From IMG/VR virus record IMGVR_UViG_3300022935_000018, positions 1-59,527 of that record: DNA of 59,527 nt. One strand, 5' to 3'. The DNA is from a virus (Duplodnaviria > Caudoviricetes). This document shows positions 1,750 through 12,660 of the stretch, one piece after another. Every line of letters begins with the position of its first letter. Positions within the stretch are counted from its first letter, which is position 1. The position numbers were made by a program, and so were the translations under genes. The notes under the pieces were generated by a model. That model did no database searches, was not told where the DNA came from, and saw nothing but the letters and a program-made list of their open reading frames with translations.

Positions 1750-4253
1750 ATGGCAGTAAATGTTGATATTCCAGGCGTAGGTAACGTACAAGCCCAAAAT
1801 GCCGCAGAAGAAGCCACTCTTAAAGAGATATTAAGAGTTTTAAAAGGCCAAGGCAAAGGCGGTTTGGGTGGTGGCGGAGCAAGTAGCGGCGGTGGCGGAG
1901 CCGGCGGTAACCCCTCTCAGGTACTTACAGGACTTACTAAAGATCTAGGCAAGTTTAGTAAAGGTATCAAAGGCACTACTAATGCATTACAAGATTTTCA
2001 AGCAGGACTAAAATCTATAGGCGGTGCAATCCTTGACGGATTTATGAGTGTTGCTAGTTCTGCAATGAATTTGGGTAAAGAACTACTTGTTGGCGGAAAT
2101 AGACTTAGTGACTTTGCCCAGCATATTCCGCTTGTTGGAAATGCACTCTCTGGATTACTAGGGATACTCGAAGGGCAAATCGACACTTGGCGAAGTTTAT
2201 CTGAAGTAGGTGCTTCGTTTGGTAACGACATTGCAAAAATGAACCTTGCCGCGGCCAATGCAGGTCTGGGCATGGAAAATTTGCAGAGTTTGTTGGTGGC
2301 AACTCTGAAAGAATGCAGTTCTTAGGAGGCACAGTTACTGAAGGTGCTAGTCAATTTGGTTCGTTAATTAAAAATGTAAGAAACAGTGAAAAAGGATTCT
2401 TTGGTATGGGTTATACCATGGAATCATTAAACGAACACACTGCTGAATATATTGAAATGCAGGCACGTCAAGGTAGACTTGCTGGAATGAGCCAAGCAGA
2501 ACTACAAGCAGGATCAGAAGCATATCTAGAACAAATTGATCAACTTGCTAAAGTAACAGGTAAATCACGTAAAGAAGCAGAAGCACTATTAAAACAACAA
2601 CAAGAAGAAGCAAATATACTTGTTCTTAAATCAAAGTTAGAAGGACAAAATCTTAAAAACTTTGAAAATAATATGGCTTTTGTTCAATCAGAACTACCAG
2701 GTTTCGCTAATGCGTTCGGCGACTTAGCAGACGGTGTAGCACAAACACCATTAGGTCAAATGTTAGCGGCCAACGTTGATGGGTTGAGTGAACTCCAAGA
2801 ACAAATGGGCCGAGGTGAAATTGGTCAAGAAGAATATCAAAAGAGATTAAAAGATTTAATGCCACGAATTGTAGAATTTGCTGATGGCATGGGAGCGGCT
2901 GGTGTATCTGCACTAGCAGGCAAAGCAGGCATGGGCGAGTTGCTTAATGGTTTAAGTGACACTAAAAAATTCTTAAGTAAATCCTACGATTTTAAACAAG
3001 CAGAAAAAGAACAAAAGGATAGAGAAAAAGTTACAGAAAATCTTGCTAACATGGAAAACGCCATTGAAGGTGCAAGAGCCCAGTTAATGAAAACTTTCCT
3101 TGAAAGTGGGTTGTTCCAAAACTTACAAAAATACATGGGCGACTTCTTAGGTTGGTTTACTGACAAAGGCGAAAACGGCATGAGCAAGATGGACGAATTC
3201 TTGCAAGAAGGATTAAAATGGGCCGAGGACTTTATGAAGTGGGTTAAAGGTGCTTGGGCAGATGCTGAAGGAACTAACATTGTACAAAAATTACAATCGT
3301 TCCTAGGTAAACTTTGGGAAGAAAAAATTAGTCCAGGTCTAGGAGCGATGTGGGACGGATTAATGGAGTCAATAGGTCCTAAACTTAGTGAATACTTTGT
3401 TAGTGCTATTGTTGGACTACTTGGTGCGTTTGCCGGGGTTGCGTTATCTATGATGTTAGGTGCTGTCATTGGCCCAATAATTGCACCATTCCTTGCTATT
3501 GCTGGCGCACTAGCCGCAATATTTGGTTGGGAAACTATTAAAGAATGGTTTGGCGCGGCATGGGATATGTTGAAAGGTGTATTCGAATGGATTGGAAATA
3601 CTGCATCAGCACTCTGGGACGTAATCAAACCTTTGATTAGTGCAATCTGGGATATTTACAAAGGAATGTTTGGATGGATTGGAGATACATTCAGTTGGTT
3701 ATGGGATAAAATTGAGCCAATTATTAGTCCAATTGTAGACGGATTAATGACTATGTTTGGTTGGATTGGCGATACCATTGGTTGGGTTTGGAACAAATTG
3801 AAAAAACTAAATCCGTTAAATTGGTTTGGCGGCGATGACGAAGACGAACTTGAAAAAGCCGAAGAGAAGAAAAGGAAAAAATTATCAGAATCTGTAGGTG
3901 GTAAACCAAGAGCCCTTACAATGGACGAAGTAGCAGGTATGTCTCCGGCGGAGATTAATGCACTAGTTGACCAAGGGTATACTGTACCAAAAACTGGAAA
4001 TGATAGACCTACTAGACCAACAGCAAATGCAAATACAGTACTCGCAAAAGATGAAACTAAAATGCCTGAGGTTAAAAAACCTTCAATGCCAGATAACAGC
4101 CAGACTGGAGCCGAGGCTATACAAACTGCGGTAAATAGTAATGCAGATTTATCACAATTGGTTGCATTAATGGCTGAATCCAATAGATTATCAGCAAAAA
4201 ATAACGCTTTAACAAGAGCATTGATGAACGATATGTTAAAAGGCGCACTATAA
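1750..4253 (+). CDS. Tail tape measure protein, split by a -1 frame break near 2276 (ORFs 1750..2325 and 2313..4253; 834 aa if joined)
   Basis: Helical Ala/Gly/Gln-rich sequence, hydrophobic segment (~3390-3530), periodic Trp repeats (~3530-3830); reads continuously as ...AGLGME|KFAEFVGGNSERMQFLGG... after a -1 shift. Confidence 0.7.
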
Positions 4254-6020
4254 ATGAGTTGGAAAAGATATTTTACAAATGCCCCTGTCGGTAATAATGG
4301 CATGGGGAATATGAGTCCATTTAGTGGACAAGGCGGAACCGAACCAGGTCCTGCACGATCAAATTATTCATCGTACCTACCGGACGTTTATGTAGGTTCA
4401 CCTAACCGTGTTGAACGTTACGGCCAATACAATGTAATGGATAACGATTCAGAAGTTAATGCGGCACTAGATATTTTAGCAGAGTTTTGCTCACAGAAAA
4501 ATCCAACTAACGAAACTAATTTTCATTTACACTTTAATAAACAAGCAACTAATTCAGAAGTAAAAATTCTAAGTCAATACTTGTTACAGTGGAGTAAACT
4601 GCAAAAGTTTGACACTAAAATGTTCCGCATTTTACGTAATGTATTCAAATACGGTGATGCATTCTTTGTAAGAGATCCAGAAACTAAAAAATGGTATCAT
4701 GTTGATCCTGCAAAAGTTTCACGTATTATTGTAAACGAATCCGACGGTAAAAAGCCTGAACAATATATTATTAAAGATATTAACTTTAACTTTAGAGATC
4801 AAGTAATTACTGATCCATATGTTACATCAGGAAATGTAACAGGCGGCGGTGCTTCACAACCAAGTACAGGTTATCAAGCAGGCGGATCACAAGGTATGGT
4901 AGGTAATGTTGGTTCGTCACAGTCCGGATCAAGATTTACAACAAATCAACAAGAGTATGCAATTGACGCAGAACACGTTATACACTTGTCACTATCAGAA
5001 GGATTAGATAACAACTATCCATTTGGTAACTCACTGTTAGAATCTATTTTTAAAGTTTACAAACAAAAAGAATTACTTGAAGATGCTATTATCATTTACC
5101 GTACACAAAGAGCACCAGAAAGACGTGTGTTCTACATTGACGTGGGTAATATGCCATCACACTTAGCAATGCAATTTGTTGAGCGTGTTAAAACAGAAAT
5201 TCATCAAAGACGTATTCCATCAGCAACTGGTGGTTCAACAAGTGTTATTGATAGTGCGTACAATCCATTATCAACAAACGAAGATTACTTCTTCCCACAA
5301 ACAGCAGAAGGTAGAGGTTCTAAAGTTGAAACATTGCCAGGTGGTACTAACCTAGGTGAAATTGATGACTTAAAATACTTTACTAATAAACTTATTAGAG
5401 GTTTACGTATTCCTAGTTCTTATTTGCCTACAGCGGCACAAGACGAAGGACAAAGTCAGTACAATGATGGTAGAGTTGGTACAGCATATATTCAAGAACT
5501 ACGTTTTAACAAATACTGTGAACGTTTACAAAATCTAGTTATTGAACAATTTAATCAAGAGTTTAAACGTTACTTGTTAGAAAAAGGTATGAACGTAGAC
5601 ATTAGTATGTTTGATGTTCAACTACAAGAACCAATGAACTTTGCTTCTTACAGACAATCAGAACTTGACAATGTAAGAATTCCAACCTTTACACAAATTC
5701 AAGCAGTACCTTTCTTATCTAATAGATTTGCACTACAACGTTTCTTAGGACTAAGTGCAGAAGAAGTTGCAGAAAACGAAAGACTATGGCGTGAAGAAAA
5801 TGATGAAAACTTAACTCCACTACCAACTGAAGCCGCTGGTGAGATGCGTGGCGTAGGTATTAGTGGTGCAGGTATGGATGCTGATGTAGGCGGCGCTGAA
5901 GATGTTGATCCAAATGCTGAACCGGCTCCAGTTGATGGCGGTGCAGGTGCTCCACCAGATACAACAACAGGTACACCATTAGGCGGTGGCGCAGGCGGCG
6001 CAACGCCTCCAGCACAATAG
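4254..6020 (+). CDS. gp20: Portal vertex protein
   Basis: LLEDAIIIYRTQRAPERRVFYIDVGNMP, EDYFFPQ..EGRGSKVETLPGG.NLGEIDD.KYF, LRIPSS motifs of the T4 gp20 family. Confidence 0.95.
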   Translation: MSWKRYFTNAPVGNNGMGNMSPFSGQGGTEPGPARSNYSSYLPDVYVGSPNRVERYGQYNVMDNDSEVNAALDILAEFCSQKNPTNETNFHLHFNKQATNSEVKILSQYLLQWSKLQKFDTKMFRILRNVFKYGDAFFVRDPETKKWYHVDPAKVSRIIVNESDGKKPEQYIIKDINFNFRDQVITDPYVTSGNVTGGGASQPSTGYQAGGSQGMVGNVGSSQSGSRFTTNQQEYAIDAEHVIHLSLSEGLDNNYPFGNSLLESIFKVYKQKELLEDAIIIYRTQRAPERRVFYIDVGNMPSHLAMQFVERVKTEIHQRRIPSATGGSTSVIDSAYNPLSTNEDYFFPQTAEGRGSKVETLPGGTNLGEIDDLKYFTNKLIRGLRIPSSYLPTAAQDEGQSQYNDGRVGTAYIQELRFNKYCERLQNLVIEQFNQEFKRYLLEKGMNVDISMFDVQLQEPMNFASYRQSELDNVRIPTFTQIQAVPFLSNRFALQRFLGLSAEEVAENERLWREENDENLTPLPTEAAGEMRGVGISGAGMDADVGGAEDVDPNAEPAPVDGGAGAPPDTTTGTPLGGGAGGATPPAQ

Positions 6021-6022
6021 GA

Positions 6023-9754: not shown

Positions 9755-10918
9755 ATGTCAGAACTATTAGAAAGTCGCTGGCAGGAAACCAAGAGCGCAT
9801 TACTTGAAGGCCTTCAAGGCAACAAGAAGTCTGTTATGTCCGCTACTCTAGAAAATACTAAAAAGTATTTGGCAGAGACAGCAACAGCAGGCGCTACTTC
9901 AGCAGGTAATGTTGCAACTCTTAACAGAGTTATCCTACCAGTAATTAGACGTGTTATGCCAACCGTCATTGCAAACGAAATCGTTGGTGTACAACCAATG
10001 ACTGGCCCAGTTGGCCAAATTCACACTCTACGTGTACGTTATGCTGATACAGCAGACGACGCAACAGCGGGTGAAGAGGCTTTATCACCATTCAAGTTAG
10101 CCCTAGGCTACTCAGGTGACGCGGCTGGCTCAGACGCAGGTAAAGCAGATGCTACTGCTACTTTAGAAGGTACAGCAGGTAAGCGTTTGAACATCCAAAT
10201 CTTGAAACAAACAGTTGAAGCGAAAACTCGTAAATTGAGTGCTCGTTGGACTTTTGAATCAGCACAGGATGCTCAAGCACAGCAAGGCATCGACGTTGAA
10301 GCGGAAATTATGGCCGCTTTAGCACAAGAAATTACCGCAGAAATTGATCAAGAGGTGTTAGCATCTCTTAACTCTTTAGCACCATCTGAAGAGACTTACA
10401 ATCAAGCGGCAGTTTCAGGTACGGCTACATTCGTAGGCGATGAACACGCGGCATTGGCTGTTCTTATTAACAGAGCGGCTAACAAGATCGCACAGCGTAC
10501 AAGACGTGGCGCAGGTAACTGGGCTGTTGTGTCTCCACAGGCACTAACAATCCTACAATCTGCTACTACTTCAGCGTTCGCTCGTACAACAGAAGGTACT
10601 TTTGAAGCACCAACTAACACTAAGTTAGCAGGTACTTTAAACGGTGCTATGAAAATCTACGTAAACGCTTATTCAGCAGATGATACTGCTGTTCTAGTTG
10701 GTTACAAAGGTTCATCTGAAGCAGATGCGGCGGCATTCTACTGCCCATACATTCCGTTAATGTCTTCAGGCGTTGTACTAGATCCATCTACTTTTGAACC
10801 AGTAGTAAGTTTCATGACAAGATATGGTTATGTTGAGTTAAACAACACAGCATCATCACTTGGTAATGCGGCAGACTACTTGGCTAAAGTAGCGATCTCA
10901 AACGTAACATTCTCTTAA
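9755..10918 (+). CDS. gp23: Major capsid protein
   Basis: VIRRVMP..IANEIVGVQPMTGPVGQI, VEAKTRKL.ARWT.E.AQD, EITAEIDQE, AFYCPYIPL, FMTRYG. Confidence 0.97.
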   Translation: MSELLESRWQETKSALLEGLQGNKKSVMSATLENTKKYLAETATAGATSAGNVATLNRVILPVIRRVMPTVIANEIVGVQPMTGPVGQIHTLRVRYADTADDATAGEEALSPFKLALGYSGDAAGSDAGKADATATLEGTAGKRLNIQILKQTVEAKTRKLSARWTFESAQDAQAQQGIDVEAEIMAALAQEITAEIDQEVLASLNSLAPSEETYNQAAVSGTATFVGDEHAALAVLINRAANKIAQRTRRGAGNWAVVSPQALTILQSATTSAFARTTEGTFEAPTNTKLAGTLNGAMKIYVNAYSADDTAVLVGYKGSSEADAAAFYCPYIPLMSSGVVLDPSTFEPVVSFMTRYGYVELNNTASSLGNAADYLAKVAISNVTFS

Positions 10919-10941
10919 TAGAGAACACGTAGCAAAACGGG

Positions 10942-10969
10942 AAAGGGCGGCTTCGGTCGCCCTTTTTTT
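10942..10969 (+). terminator. Intrinsic terminator with C(UUCG)G loop after gp23
   Basis: aaagggcggc-ttcg-gtcgcccttt plus T-run. Confidence 0.9.
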
Positions 10970-11000
10970 ACGGTTGAATTCCGTGAACAAGGAAGCACAT

Positions 11001-11372
11001 ATGTTGGAGCATAAACATTTGATTATCAGAGCAGAAGTTGAAAAGCCAATAATTAATCGAAACAAGGCTCGCAAGTTTTTAAGAAGTCTAATTAAAAAAA
11101 TCAACATGAAAGAACTATACGGTCCAGTTGCAAGTTATTGTAAAATGGCAGGCAACAGAGGGATCACAGCATTTGCAGTTATTGAAACAAGTCATCTAGC
11201 AATGCACATTTGGGATGAAGACAATCCTTCTTTAATCCAACTTGACGTTTATAGTTGTAGCAGTTTTGATCCAAGAACAGTATTTGATCACTTAGAAATA
11301 ATGCAACCAGTTAAAGTAGATTATAAATTTTTGGACAGAGAAACGCAATTAATTCCTATTTTGGACAAATAA
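11001..11372 (+). CDS. speD: Pyruvoyl-dependent S-adenosylmethionine decarboxylase family protein
   Basis: KHLII, GITAFAVIETSHLAMHIW, QLDVYSC..FD; start at ATG 11001 with AAGGA SD. Confidence 0.8.
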   Translation: MLEHKHLIIRAEVEKPIINRNKARKFLRSLIKKINMKELYGPVASYCKMAGNRGITAFAVIETSHLAMHIWDEDNPSLIQLDVYSCSSFDPRTVFDHLEIMQPVKVDYKFLDRETQLIPILDK

Positions 11373-11376
11373 ACGG

Positions 11377-11405
11377 TTGCTTTTTTCACAAACATTTGTT
11401 ATATT
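11377..11405 (+). promoter_or_regulatory. Sigma70-type promoter (TTGCTT-17-TATATT, extended -10)
   Basis: TTGCTT 11377-82, 17-nt spacer ending TGT, TATATT 11400-05. Confidence 0.65.
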
Positions 11406-11445
11406 AGTATTATAAGCATTAGGAGATTAATTAACTCTTAATATT

Positions 11446-11626
11446 AGTGCAAGGAAGAGGCCTTTACCAGAAGGGTCTAACTTGACTAGCCAGGGGTGGT
11501 ACCCAGGGTTTGTACTAGAAATAGGCAGGCTCACATCGCAGTCACTAGCGGGGTTAGGTTGTGCGGTTTAGGAATGGTATTCCGGTCCGTGCTTGGAGGT
11601 GTAACCAAGTCCTCCCTAATTTGCTT
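11446..11626 (+). ncRNA. Structured non-coding RNA, manA-motif-like
   Basis: GC-rich non-coding island with several G-U-containing helices, a GAAA tetraloop and complementary loops; GCAAGGA, CTTGAC, GGGGTGGTACCC and GGTGTAA..CAAGTCC elements resemble my recollection of the manA RNA consensus. Confidence 0.65.
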
Positions 11627-11630
11627 TACT

Positions 11631-11668
11631 AAAAAGACTTGGCGGGGAGACTTTCCAAGTCTTTTTTT
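11631..11668 (+). terminator. Intrinsic terminator (bidirectional form) closing the ncRNA
   Basis: aaaaagacttgg...ccaagtcttttttt. Confidence 0.85.
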
Positions 11669-11673
11669 ATGAC

Positions 11674-11679
11674 TAAATA
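11674..11679 (+). promoter_or_regulatory. Late promoter TAAATA, 5 nt before ATG 11685
   Basis: acTAAATAttagtATG, no SD. Confidence 0.6.
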
Positions 11680-11684
11680 TTAGT

Positions 11685-12104
11685 ATGAGGGACGAATACA
11701 CATCGGCCTTTTACGACATTGTCCGAGAGGCACAATCAACTACTGGTTTTGATTTACCATTAGAAATCGAAGCCTACGTAGTAATGCTTCTTGCAGACAA
11801 GATAGACAAACCAAATTTTCTTCCACAAACTACATTTGCACAAGAGTTTTTAAAACTTAAACGTCCATACAATTACACAGCAAAAGAACTAGGTGATAGT
11901 TGCTTGTTTGTTACTGGTGTTTTTCCTGAATATGGAATAAGTGTGCGTTACTATTCAGATATAGGAAAAAGTTCGTATACGCTTGTACAAGAAGGTCTAA
12001 ATGCAGAACTATTTGGACTTTTAGCAACACGCTTTGATTTCATTAGAGATTTCATAAATTTAACAGTACGTAGAAATAAATCACCAATTACAGCATTGAG
12101 ATAA
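11685..12104 (+). CDS. Hypothetical protein
   Basis: 139-aa ORF with ELGDSCLFVTGVFP and YYSDIGKSSY; function not recognised. Confidence 0.75.
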   Translation: MRDEYTSAFYDIVREAQSTTGFDLPLEIEAYVVMLLADKIDKPNFLPQTTFAQEFLKLKRPYNYTAKELGDSCLFVTGVFPEYGISVRYYSDIGKSSYTLVQEGLNAELFGLLATRFDFIRDFINLTVRRNKSPITALR

Positions 12105-12107
12105 ATA
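12102..12107 (+). promoter_or_regulatory. Late promoter TAAATA ahead of a ~95-nt structured leader
   Basis: TAAATACTTGT, the same 11-mer as at 1710-1720(-) and 14571-14581. Confidence 0.65.
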
Positions 12108-12207
12108 CTTGTGTCAGATAGTGTGCCGCATAATGTGGCGGACTTATGCTGTTACCCACAGCGTACCGGATAGAACCCGGATAGGACTACTTTATAGGAG
12201 AAAACAA

Positions 12208-12660
12208 ATGGGAAGACCACTAAACAAAAGATACTTCGGCGAACCAACTGCTGGAGGCAACGAAATTAAAGTTAACTTCAACGACGGTTCATCTGTTGTA
12301 GAAGGTCACATTGTAAAACAAAAAGGTTCAAAGCGTTTTGTTGTTGCGCCTTTAGGTGCTTCGGACACTGAATATACTTGCGTTCTTACTACTGGTAAAT
12401 TACCAGCGGCATTAGCGGCAGGCGAAATGGCTATTTCAGTTAAAGGTGACGACGGCGAAACTTACGGTGTAAGCAAAATTGCAGGACATAAAGTTACTGT
12501 AGTTGCTCCAAGTGCAACTGGTTCAAACGCATTAGACGGAACATCAATTGCTTGGAATTATAGTACTTCGGCTGTTGACGGTGCAGTACAAGTTGAAGAG
12601 GCTGGTGAAACAGACGACGCGGCTTCAGTTACTGATGACGATTTCACAGACGACGCATAA
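12208..12660 (+). CDS. Probable virion structural protein (150 aa)
   Basis: ATG 12208 with AGGAG SD (MGRPLNKRYFG...); own late promoter and terminator. Confidence 0.65.
   Translation: MGRPLNKRYFGEPTAGGNEIKVNFNDGSSVVEGHIVKQKGSKRFVVAPLGASDTEYTCVLTTGKLPAALAAGEMAISVKGDDGETYGVSKIAGHKVTVVAPSATGSNALDGTSIAWNYSTSAVDGAVQVEEAGETDDAASVTDDDFTDDA

Follow-up and report, generated by a model that had tools for sequence, protein, structure and literature searches.

A divergent manA RNA that looks like its own transcription unit in a Caudoviricetes virus

Introduction

Does a conserved RNA that lies ahead of a phage gene serve that gene, or can it be the product of a gene of its own? The question is raised by a 312-nt gap in the IMG/VR virus record IMGVR_UViG_3300022935_000018 (Caudoviricetes), where an RNA element is located between an S-adenosylmethionine (AdoMet) decarboxylase gene and an open reading frame (ORF) of 139 amino acids (aa). 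The DNA analysed here, which we call the window, is a 59.5-kb part of this record (positions 1 to 59,527; the completeness of the record is estimated at 19%). An earlier note, made from the letters of this DNA, had described a structured RNA at 11377-11668 with a promoter and a terminator of its own, and had proposed that it acts early and in trans. Here we find that the element is a divergent manA RNA. The manA family is already known; what is new is a divergent variant that in this lineage is arranged as a self-contained gene.

According to its accessible text, the paper that defined manA presents it as a riboswitch candidate found in 5' untranslated regions (UTRs), both in marine phages and in gamma-proteobacteria (Weinberg et al. 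2010, PMC2864571), and the accessible part of a 2023 cyanophage paper states that its role needs verification (PMC9964418). The accessible text of a July 2026 preprint (doi 10.64898/2026.07.01.735769) reports cryo-EM structures in which manA RNAs assemble into octamers, decamers built from pentamers and a cage of 60 subunits, held together by intermolecular L5-L7' and L8-L9' kissing loops or, alternatively, by L5-L7' and L3-L8' contacts joined by a GNRA-receptor contact, L6-P6'; neither "in vivo" nor "terminator" occurs in that text. Across the manA literature that we found no ligand is reported, and our literature search, whose scope did not extend to the supplements of the 2010 paper, returned no description of manA copies closed by their own terminator.

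Results

The element is a divergent manA RNA

When the region 11300-11750 was scanned by E-value, the Rfam manA model (RF01745) aligned over its full length (model positions 1-192) with 11419-11625, at 51.2 bits and an E-value of 2.6e-12 in this 451-nt search, or 8e-14 in the whole record, where it is present as a single copy. This score is under the family cut-off, and a scan of the window at Rfam gathering thresholds reported nothing at the RNA site. A blastn search of 50,697 phage records returned one relative, Pelagibacter phage Mosig EXVC030M (73.6% identity, 71% query cover), whose copy is itself a manA RNA at 64.0 bits. Among 14 relatives' loci that were scanned, 13 gave a manA match at E<=0.001 (40.2-62.4 bits), and five of the 14 reached the cut-off; the canonical manA of Prochlorococcus phage P-SSM2 scores 181.6 bits. 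We conclude that the RNA is a divergent manA from a subgroup that straddles the family cut-off; since nine of the 14 loci and the window fall under it, the Rfam model and its cut-off miss part of the family. The likeness to manA stated in the earlier note therefore holds up under the Rfam search that it had proposed. The model had no match in 14 control genomes, in Syn9 or S-PM2, or in Vibrio phage 2.275.O (MG592671) and PA5oct (MK797984), the two that were searched among the cultured relatives by capsid.

The whole manA architecture aligns with the window: a 5' hairpin, the pseudoknot, P3, a P4 helix that closes three hairpins, P8 and P9 are all present, the middle hairpin of the three carries a GNRA loop (L6, GAAA at 11518-11521), and the GUGGU-type L5 is complementary to L7. 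Like other members the RNA is found in marine T4-like phages, with a sigma70-type promoter directly 5' of it, as in P-SSM2. It differs from canonical manA in its AU-rich pseudoknot (AUUAG/CUAAU versus GGGAG/CUCCC), in its conserved ACCAG loop L3 and in the loops L8/L9 (UGGUA/ACCA versus CUGUA/UACAG). The window RNA is followed by its own terminator and the canonical one by a gene, and the window's capsid protein shares about 70% identity with capsids from jumbo phages (285-350 kb) and not with those of cyanophages. In the P-SSM2 locus itself (L176, 1000-1260) we noted that AUAUU and AAUAU, which the Rfam model does not include, could form a closing pairing; the locus also has a seven-U run between the pseudoknot and the next ATG, and a TTGACA-N17-TATAAT promoter of its own ahead of what is a leader arrangement.

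Covariation in relatives supports the fold

For comparison, IMG/VR was scanned with two exact words from the window, which found at least 119 stretches for one word and 50 for the other. A blastn search of the RNA against the fetched loci matched 73, and removal of seven cut by the end of their locus and seven identical ones left 59 distinct relatives. The alignment used throughout (A2, MAFFT) comprises these 59 full-length relatives among the matches listed, together with the window, giving 60 sequences, and for the loops it was combined with hairpin folds of each sequence. Helices are numbered 5' to 3' with the pseudoknot second, which makes the GNRA loop L6 and leaves L5/L7 and L8/L9 complementary in P-SSM2; this numbering probably matches that of the preprint.

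On its own, the sequence 11410-11670 folds at -83.5 kcal/mol and its shuffles fold at -73.0 +/- 4.95 (z -2.12), with 3 of 200 doing as well. Since this is a modest excess, the case for a structured RNA rests on the Rfam match and on covariation. The structure tested was the manA structure transferred to the window, plus a closing helix, P0, seen in the flanks. In the alignment 90.0% of cells are paired, against 73.2 +/- 0.4% in shuffles, none of 500 of which reached any of five measures; 51 of 70 pairs have changed on both sides, and as a control, sliding the 3' partners by 1-3 columns left only 36-48% paired. The comparison of 59 relatives thus gives strong support to ten helices. Together with the manA match, this confirms the structured RNA that had been described from the window alone, and it is the covariation analysis that the earlier note had called for.

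The ten helices lie within a predicted transcript of about 257 nt (11412-11668), which, like the genes and RNA features of the window given here, is on the + strand, and which encloses both the manA match and the exact RNA-library contigs described below. P0, outside the Rfam model, pairs AAGCA at 11414-11418 with 11622-11626; three of its four counted pairs have changed on both sides, and one is U-A in 30 sequences and A-U in 28. It is followed by hairpin P1 (TTAGGAG/CTCTTAA, 11419-11441; 92.9% paired, double changes in six of seven pairs) and by ATTAG at 11443-11447, which pairs with CTAAT at 11616-11620 in the positions of the manA pseudoknot. The pseudoknot stays paired, with three of its five pairs invariant and one that is A-U in 56 of 60 sequences and U-A in the window, so that its support comes mainly from its position and from this one swap. 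P3 (11459-11477) presents L3, UACCAG, at 11465-11470 and is 99.4% paired with double changes in four of six pairs. P4 (CTAGCC/GGTTAG, 11486-11557; 99.7% paired, six of six pairs doubly changed) closes the P5-P6-P7 junction, which consists of P5 with L5 GUGGUA (11493-11504; 100% paired), P6 with its GAAA tetraloop (11506-11532; 89.8% paired, nine of 11 pairs doubly changed) and P7 with loop L7 AGUCACUA (11536-11551; stem 100% paired). P8 is a two-part hairpin at 11561-11592 with L8 UGGUA at 11575-11579; its outer stem is 92.5% paired with double changes in six of six pairs, and its inner stem, at 53.5%, was misaligned by MAFFT and is uninformative. P9 (GGAGG/CCTCC, 11595-11615; 100% paired, three of five pairs doubly changed) carries loop L9 UGUAACCAAGU. 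Thus P1, P3, P4, P5, P6, P7, outer P8 and P9 are each about 90-100% paired and contain two to nine doubly changed pairs. Long unpaired stretches are invariant as well, such as GAACTTG and AGTGCAAGGAAGAG; since the latter was one of the two search words, its invariance in the loci found with it is by construction.

Most of the helices drawn in the earlier note are paired in the relatives: aggccttt/aagggtct is P3, gggtttgt-cta-GAAA-tag-gcaggctc is P6, gtgcgg/ccgtgc is P8 and ggagg/cctcc is P9. Two others were not borne out, since ctaactt/gggttag is paired in 63.3% of cells, like shuffles, with GGTTAG pairing instead with CTAGCC in P4, and gcttgg/ccaagt is paired in 76.7% with no double change, again like shuffles. 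P0, P1, the pseudoknot and P7 had been absent from that description. A protein-coding explanation for the region, a 58-aa ORF at 11496-11672, was rejected because, on our reading of the alignment, 30 relatives have an in-frame TAG (TTGTAGG where the window has TTGGAGG).

Loops L5 and L7 co-evolve

The loops themselves are as they had been described, with TACCA in L3 (11465-11469), gggTGGTAccc in L5 and ggaaTGGTAttcc in L8, and the question is which of them pair. L5 covaries with L7. In 47 of the 60 sequences L7 has 4 nt, and L5 positions 3, 4 and 5 then face L7 positions 4, 3 and 2 in three core pairs that are Watson-Crick in 47, 45 and 42 of the 47. The pairs switch identity, from G-C to U-A (27/20), from G-C to A-U (43/2) and from U-A to C-G (40/2). 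The observed pairing of 89.4% is reached by none of 2000 partner shuffles, and other registers give 23-43%. At the level of whole loops, GUGGUA occurs with UACC in 22 sequences, GUUGU(A/U/C/G) with GACA in 16, GUUGCA with GGCA in two and GUUAUA with GAUA in two, one of which has a near-identical relative with GUUGUA/GACA. The longer L7 loops of the other 13 sequences, the window's among them, contain ACUA or UACC in 13 of 13 cases. In the window, UGGU of L5 (11497-11500) is complementary to ACUA of L7 (11544-11547), and in three close relatives with L5 GUAGUA the G-U pair of this contact becomes A-U.

The case of L8, which may pair with ACCA of L9 or with UACCA of L3, is less clear-cut. Seven of the eight sequences whose L8 reads UGGAAU have AUUCC in L9, giving 6-7 base pairs (bp), and AUUCC is found in none of the 52 others (0 of 500 shuffles). 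At the positions of UGGU and ACCA in the window, P-SSM2 reads CUGUA (L8) and UACAG (L9), which on our reading amounts to two compensated L8-L9 pairs between P-SSM2 and the window's subgroup. UACCA of L3 and UGGUA of L8 are able to pair over 5 bp in 29 sequences and over 4 bp in a further 19, which makes 48 of the 60 with 4-5 bp. UGG of L8 and CC of L3 are invariant in all 60. L3 keeps ACCAG even where L8 and L9 pair over 6-7 bp, so L3 may have another partner. An L3-L5 pairing was considered and rejected: although 32 of the 60 sequences allow 5 bp, 18 allow no more than 3, and L5 follows L7.

These pairings leave the scheme proposed in the earlier note, in which the TACCA loop serves both TGGTA loops, half right, because L5 pairs with L7 while L8 may use TACCA; the idea of one donor loop for two acceptors is not supported, since the partner of L5 is L7. 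Its suggestion that the loops bind tRNA ends fares no better, as L5 lacks UGG in 20 of the 60 sequences and every loop with CCA or UGG has a partner within the RNA.

The RNA has a conserved promoter and its own terminator

Directly 5' of the RNA lies a sigma70-type promoter consisting of a -35 element, TTGCTT (11377-11382), a 17-nt spacer and an extended -10 element, TGT-TATATT (TGTTATATT, 11397-11405). By our reading of the flanks, all 60 sequences have this arrangement of a TTGACA-like element (TTGACA, TTGACT or TTGCTT, equally spaced), 17 nt and a TGn-TATAAT-like element (TGn with TATATT or TATAAT), with the -10 located 5-7 nt before P0. The promoter that had been noticed in the window is thus conserved, and of the extended -10 type. 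Transcription is predicted to start at about 11412, so that the RNA would begin in helix P0. A generic promoter scan was uninformative (5 sites versus 4.7 expected).

At the other end the RNA is closed by an intrinsic terminator at 11631-11668 (A5, a GACUUGG stem, a 12-nt top, CCAAGUC and U7; -17.0 kcal/mol, z -4.67, with 0 of 200 shuffles as good), which bears out the strong terminator of the earlier note; the generic scan missed it because its loop exceeds 8 nt. The A5 run mirrors the U7 run, so the terminator would also read on the - strand, and no convergent gene lies nearby.

The whole of the terminator is 3' of P0, clear of the fold. In the window GACUUGG, the 5' arm of the terminator, is complementary to CCAAGUC in L9, but as an antiterminator this duplex is no better than with shuffled arms (z -0.10, p 0.44). 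The same holds across the group: when the best duplex of the 5' arm with the fold was compared with 300 arm shuffles for 22 terminators, the mean z was -0.24 and one of the 22 reached p<=0.01. With arm duplexes equal to shuffles and a terminator beyond P0, there is no sign of an expression platform.

Past the terminator, a late-promoter-like CTAAATA (11673-11679) precedes the ORF at 11685-12104. The window contains 14 [AC]TAAATA sites on the + strand and four on the - strand, and by our reading nine of the 14 lie 5-40 nt before a gene-start ATG, which agrees with the late promoter that the earlier note had assigned to the next gene. The motif resembles the T4 late promoter TATAAATA. In most close relatives the terminator is likewise followed by (G/C)ATAAATA or CTAAATA, and in some by a complete TTGAC-N17-TATAAT. 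At 6022, 11673 and 13678 (+) the ATG comes only 5 nt after [AC]TAAATA, with no Shine-Dalgarno sequence, a spacing so short that the late mRNAs concerned may have little or no leader.

Taken together, the conserved promoter, the kept terminator, the downstream CTAAATA and the lack of a detectable antiterminator make the RNA look like a separate transcription unit.

Relatives show two genomic arrangements

The window and its close relatives, 29 of the 60 sequences, share the same neighbourhood, and the other 31 are of a leader type. A terminator, taken as a hairpin followed by a run of four or more U no further than 50 nt from the pseudoknot, is present in 22 of the 29, the window included, in 18 different hairpin sequences; among the remainder two have one about 100 nt away, two have a broken U run, two have none and one locus ends too early. 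The module stays constant while at least nine different kinds of gene come first after the terminator. Examples are the 139-aa gene, genes that by our reading of the N-termini look cold-shock-like or cytidylyltransferase-like, and directly the freshwater-2 gene.

In the leader type the gene after the RNA is gp32 in 21 of 31 sequences (PF08804, 152 bits, tested in one), a redoxin gene in five (PF08534, tested in one; gp32 comes next), a rubrerythrin gene in four (so named in Mosig) and another gene in one. A manA-type RNA therefore stands at the head of operons for gp32, the single-stranded DNA-binding protein, in terminator-less loci such as L076 (508-1715), L134 (2906-4642), L002 (Mosig; 2995-4622) and 28 more, some of which have a rubrerythrin or redoxin gene placed before gp32. 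Where gp32 follows the RNA directly, the spacer is 60-90 nt with many ACAAAUACAA-like repeats; this arrangement is reminiscent of the translational operator of T4 gene 32, with its structured and unstructured parts.

Other RNA elements accompany some of these loci. In three relatives (L006 2812-2861, L073 742-791, L028 1573-1622) the RNA is preceded on its own strand, at a distance of about 150-300 nt, by a glutamine riboswitch aptamer (RF01739, 47-60 bits), and at gathering level none is present in the window. Two leader-type contigs carry tmRNA genes, alpha-proteobacterial or permuted (84-96 bits), a few kb from the RNA (L061 2105-2378, L163 4934-5218).

Contigs from RNA libraries

The stretch 11300-11800 is present in 14 DNA-listed and six RNA-listed sequencing runs, from salt-marsh or marine samples, and we aligned the contigs of four RNA runs to 10900-12400. 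Each of the four yielded one exact contig wholly inside the RNA (11430-11643, 11446-11625, 11430-11644 and 11448-11646). These contigs are 180-215 nt in length and match from end to end; they reveal neither where a transcript ends nor its strand, and such agreement counts as a weak hint. The bins from 10951 to 11409 have depth 0 in the four runs, and from 11665 onward there is cover only by a relative with 17-29 differences; neither gap was counted as evidence. Contig depths, 7-19 for the exact contigs and 189-506 for a relative's manA, are not a measure of expression.

The genes around the RNA

Upstream of the RNA are a major capsid gene of Gp23 type (9755-10918; PF07068, 328 bits) and the AdoMet decarboxylase gene (10974-11372; PF02675), which thus sits inside the structural module, between capsid gene and RNA (9755-11372). 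Among the jumbo phages whose capsid proteins share about 70% identity with that of the window are Vibrio phage 2.275.O, Pseudomonas phage PA5oct and Serratia BF. Downstream, the 139-aa ORF (11685-12104) has no family match and is followed by a freshwater-2 RNA motif (RF02980, 78.7 bits) at 12124-12210, which ends at the ATG of a 150-aa ORF that starts at 12208, also without a family match. The freshwater-2 motif begins about 15 nt after a late-promoter-like motif, GATAAATAC (window 12101-12210). In nine relatives, seven with a terminator and two without, the freshwater-2 unit comes directly after the manA RNA with no intervening gene. The 59,527-nt window contains no tRNA genes.

Discussion

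The mechanism that we consider most likely, giving it an even chance of being correct, is that of a separately made early RNA which assembles through its co-evolving loops. Host RNA polymerase would start at the strong extended -10 promoter near 11412 and stop at the terminator near 11668, producing an RNA of about 257 nt early in infection. P0 brings the 5' end of the RNA together with the sequence that immediately precedes the terminator, and within this frame the manA core (P1, pseudoknot, P3, the P4-P5-P6-P7 junction, P8 and P9) folds with six loops pointing outward, L5 pairing with L7, UGGUA of L8 with ACCA of L9 or UACCA of L3, and L6 offering its GNRA tetraloop. By homology with the cryo-EM manA RNAs, these contacts would most likely be made between molecules and lead to closed homo-oligomers, the RNA acting as an assembled particle and not as a switch on the next gene. 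The window resembles the manA oligomers and the 60-subunit cage in that its L5-L7, L8-L9 and L3-L8 pairs are complementary and its L6 is a GNRA loop. The constructs behind those structures are named after Photobacterium and by codes, none of the window's subgroup according to the accessible text. The multimerisation suggested in the earlier note fits these structures; the note's observation is confirmed and its interpretation supported in part. The RNA may act in trans; 31 relatives carry it as an mRNA leader without a terminator. A more distant parallel is provided by GOLLD and ROOL, phage and bacterial non-coding RNAs which, in the accessible text of a Nature 2025 paper (PMC12286853), form RNA-only homo-oligomeric complexes; they are several times larger, we saw no sequence relation, and neither matched the window in the Rfam scan.

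Several observations weigh against this account. The score of the window, 51.2 bits, is below the Rfam gathering score of 55.2, and the correspondence of loop numbers with the preprint depends on the sole GNRA loop L6 and on loop complementarity. The 60 sequences were gathered through two exact window words, which are invariant by construction, the first of them from at least 119 stretches. The L3-L8 signal does not exceed what conservation gives (118 of 500 shuffles), with one compensated change, in L079 (UACCU with AGGUA), and contact within a molecule is not distinguishable from contact between molecules by sequence. According to the accessible text of the preprint, manA oligomers were shown only in vitro, at about 3 mg/mL RNA and 10 mM Mg (doi 10.64898/2026.07.01.735769). 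As for the transcription unit, the close relatives L041 and L073 have no terminator, the 31 leader-type sequences and canonical P-SSM2 likewise have none and are leader-like, with a gene 20-145 nt downstream, and in the RNA libraries a 492-nt contig of a relative extends about 245 nt beyond that relative's RNA, so that read-through or overlapping transcripts exist somewhere in the group.

The same early manA-fold RNA could instead work as a monomer, with its loop contacts internal and its conserved single-stranded core binding a metabolite or a protein of host or phage; a decoy or sponge would be an example. All that speaks for a separate transcription unit speaks for this reading too, L5 and L7 are on neighbouring arms of one junction, which makes an internal contact conceivable, and the long invariant unpaired stretches (GAACTTG, and the search word by construction) suggest a binding surface or core, just as the conservation of L3 ACCAG alongside a 6-7-bp L8-L9 pairing may point to another partner. 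Since, however, the accessible preprint text gives L5-L7', L8-L9' and L3-L8' as intermolecular, and the window is complementary in exactly these pairs, we regard a monomer as a serious but rather unlikely alternative. In a third reading, that of a cis-acting riboswitch or attenuator, a ligand-dependent fold would gate read-through of transcripts from the early promoter into 11685-12104 and beyond; the accessible text of Weinberg et al. (2010; PMC2864571) makes manA a riboswitch candidate in 5' UTRs. The order of promoter, conserved fold or aptamer, intrinsic terminator and gene is indeed the classic layout of a transcription-terminating riboswitch, Rfam types manA as 'Cis-reg', and the RNA stands directly before a gene in 31 relatives and in P-SSM2. 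In the window, however, the terminator precedes the next ORF and lies entirely outside the fold, so that the two neither overlap nor compete, and the one pairing that might link them, between arm and L9, behaves like that of shuffled arms. The downstream gene has a promoter-like motif of its own, which in some relatives is a full sigma70-type promoter, the first gene varies while the module does not, and the manA literature found names no ligand. We therefore think a riboswitch improbable for this lineage.

It is very improbable that the UGGUA loops bind the ACCA 3' ends of tRNAs in the manner of a T-box, or that a tRNA end is imitated by the ACCA loop. The UGGUA loops are indeed complementary to NCCA, and UGG of L8 and CC of L3 never vary in the 60 sequences. 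However, UGG of L5 is lost in a third of the sequences (20 of 60), changing together with L7, and UGG of L8 has partners within the RNA, in L9 and L3. The window also has no specifier-like element, antiterminator bulge or tRNA gene; its UGG motifs lie in hairpin loops with internal partners, and not in an antiterminator bulge as in T-boxes.

Returning to the assembling RNA, its wider implication, which we offer tentatively and think distinctly less probable than its opposite, is that manA RNAs are not riboswitches but come from early phage genes whose products are RNA particles that assemble themselves. This lineage would then present the bare gene, consisting of promoter, closed RNA and terminator and expressed in the field, with a loop code, L5-L7 and L8-L9/L3, that has co-evolved for assembly, and with the subgroup-specific ACCAG of L3 left free for a cargo or host factor. 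Since 2010 manA has been listed as a cis-regulatory riboswitch candidate without a ligand, and the RNA-only decamers and 60-subunit cage of 2026 were obtained in vitro and, in the accessible text, without a biological context. That the same fold is found here as a self-contained, terminated gene with a putative early promoter speaks for the RNA as the gene product in its own right, and the co-variation in this group of the loops that form the interfaces of the solved structures fits this view. The lineage may thus offer a concrete way to ask what role a natural RNA cage plays in an infected cell.

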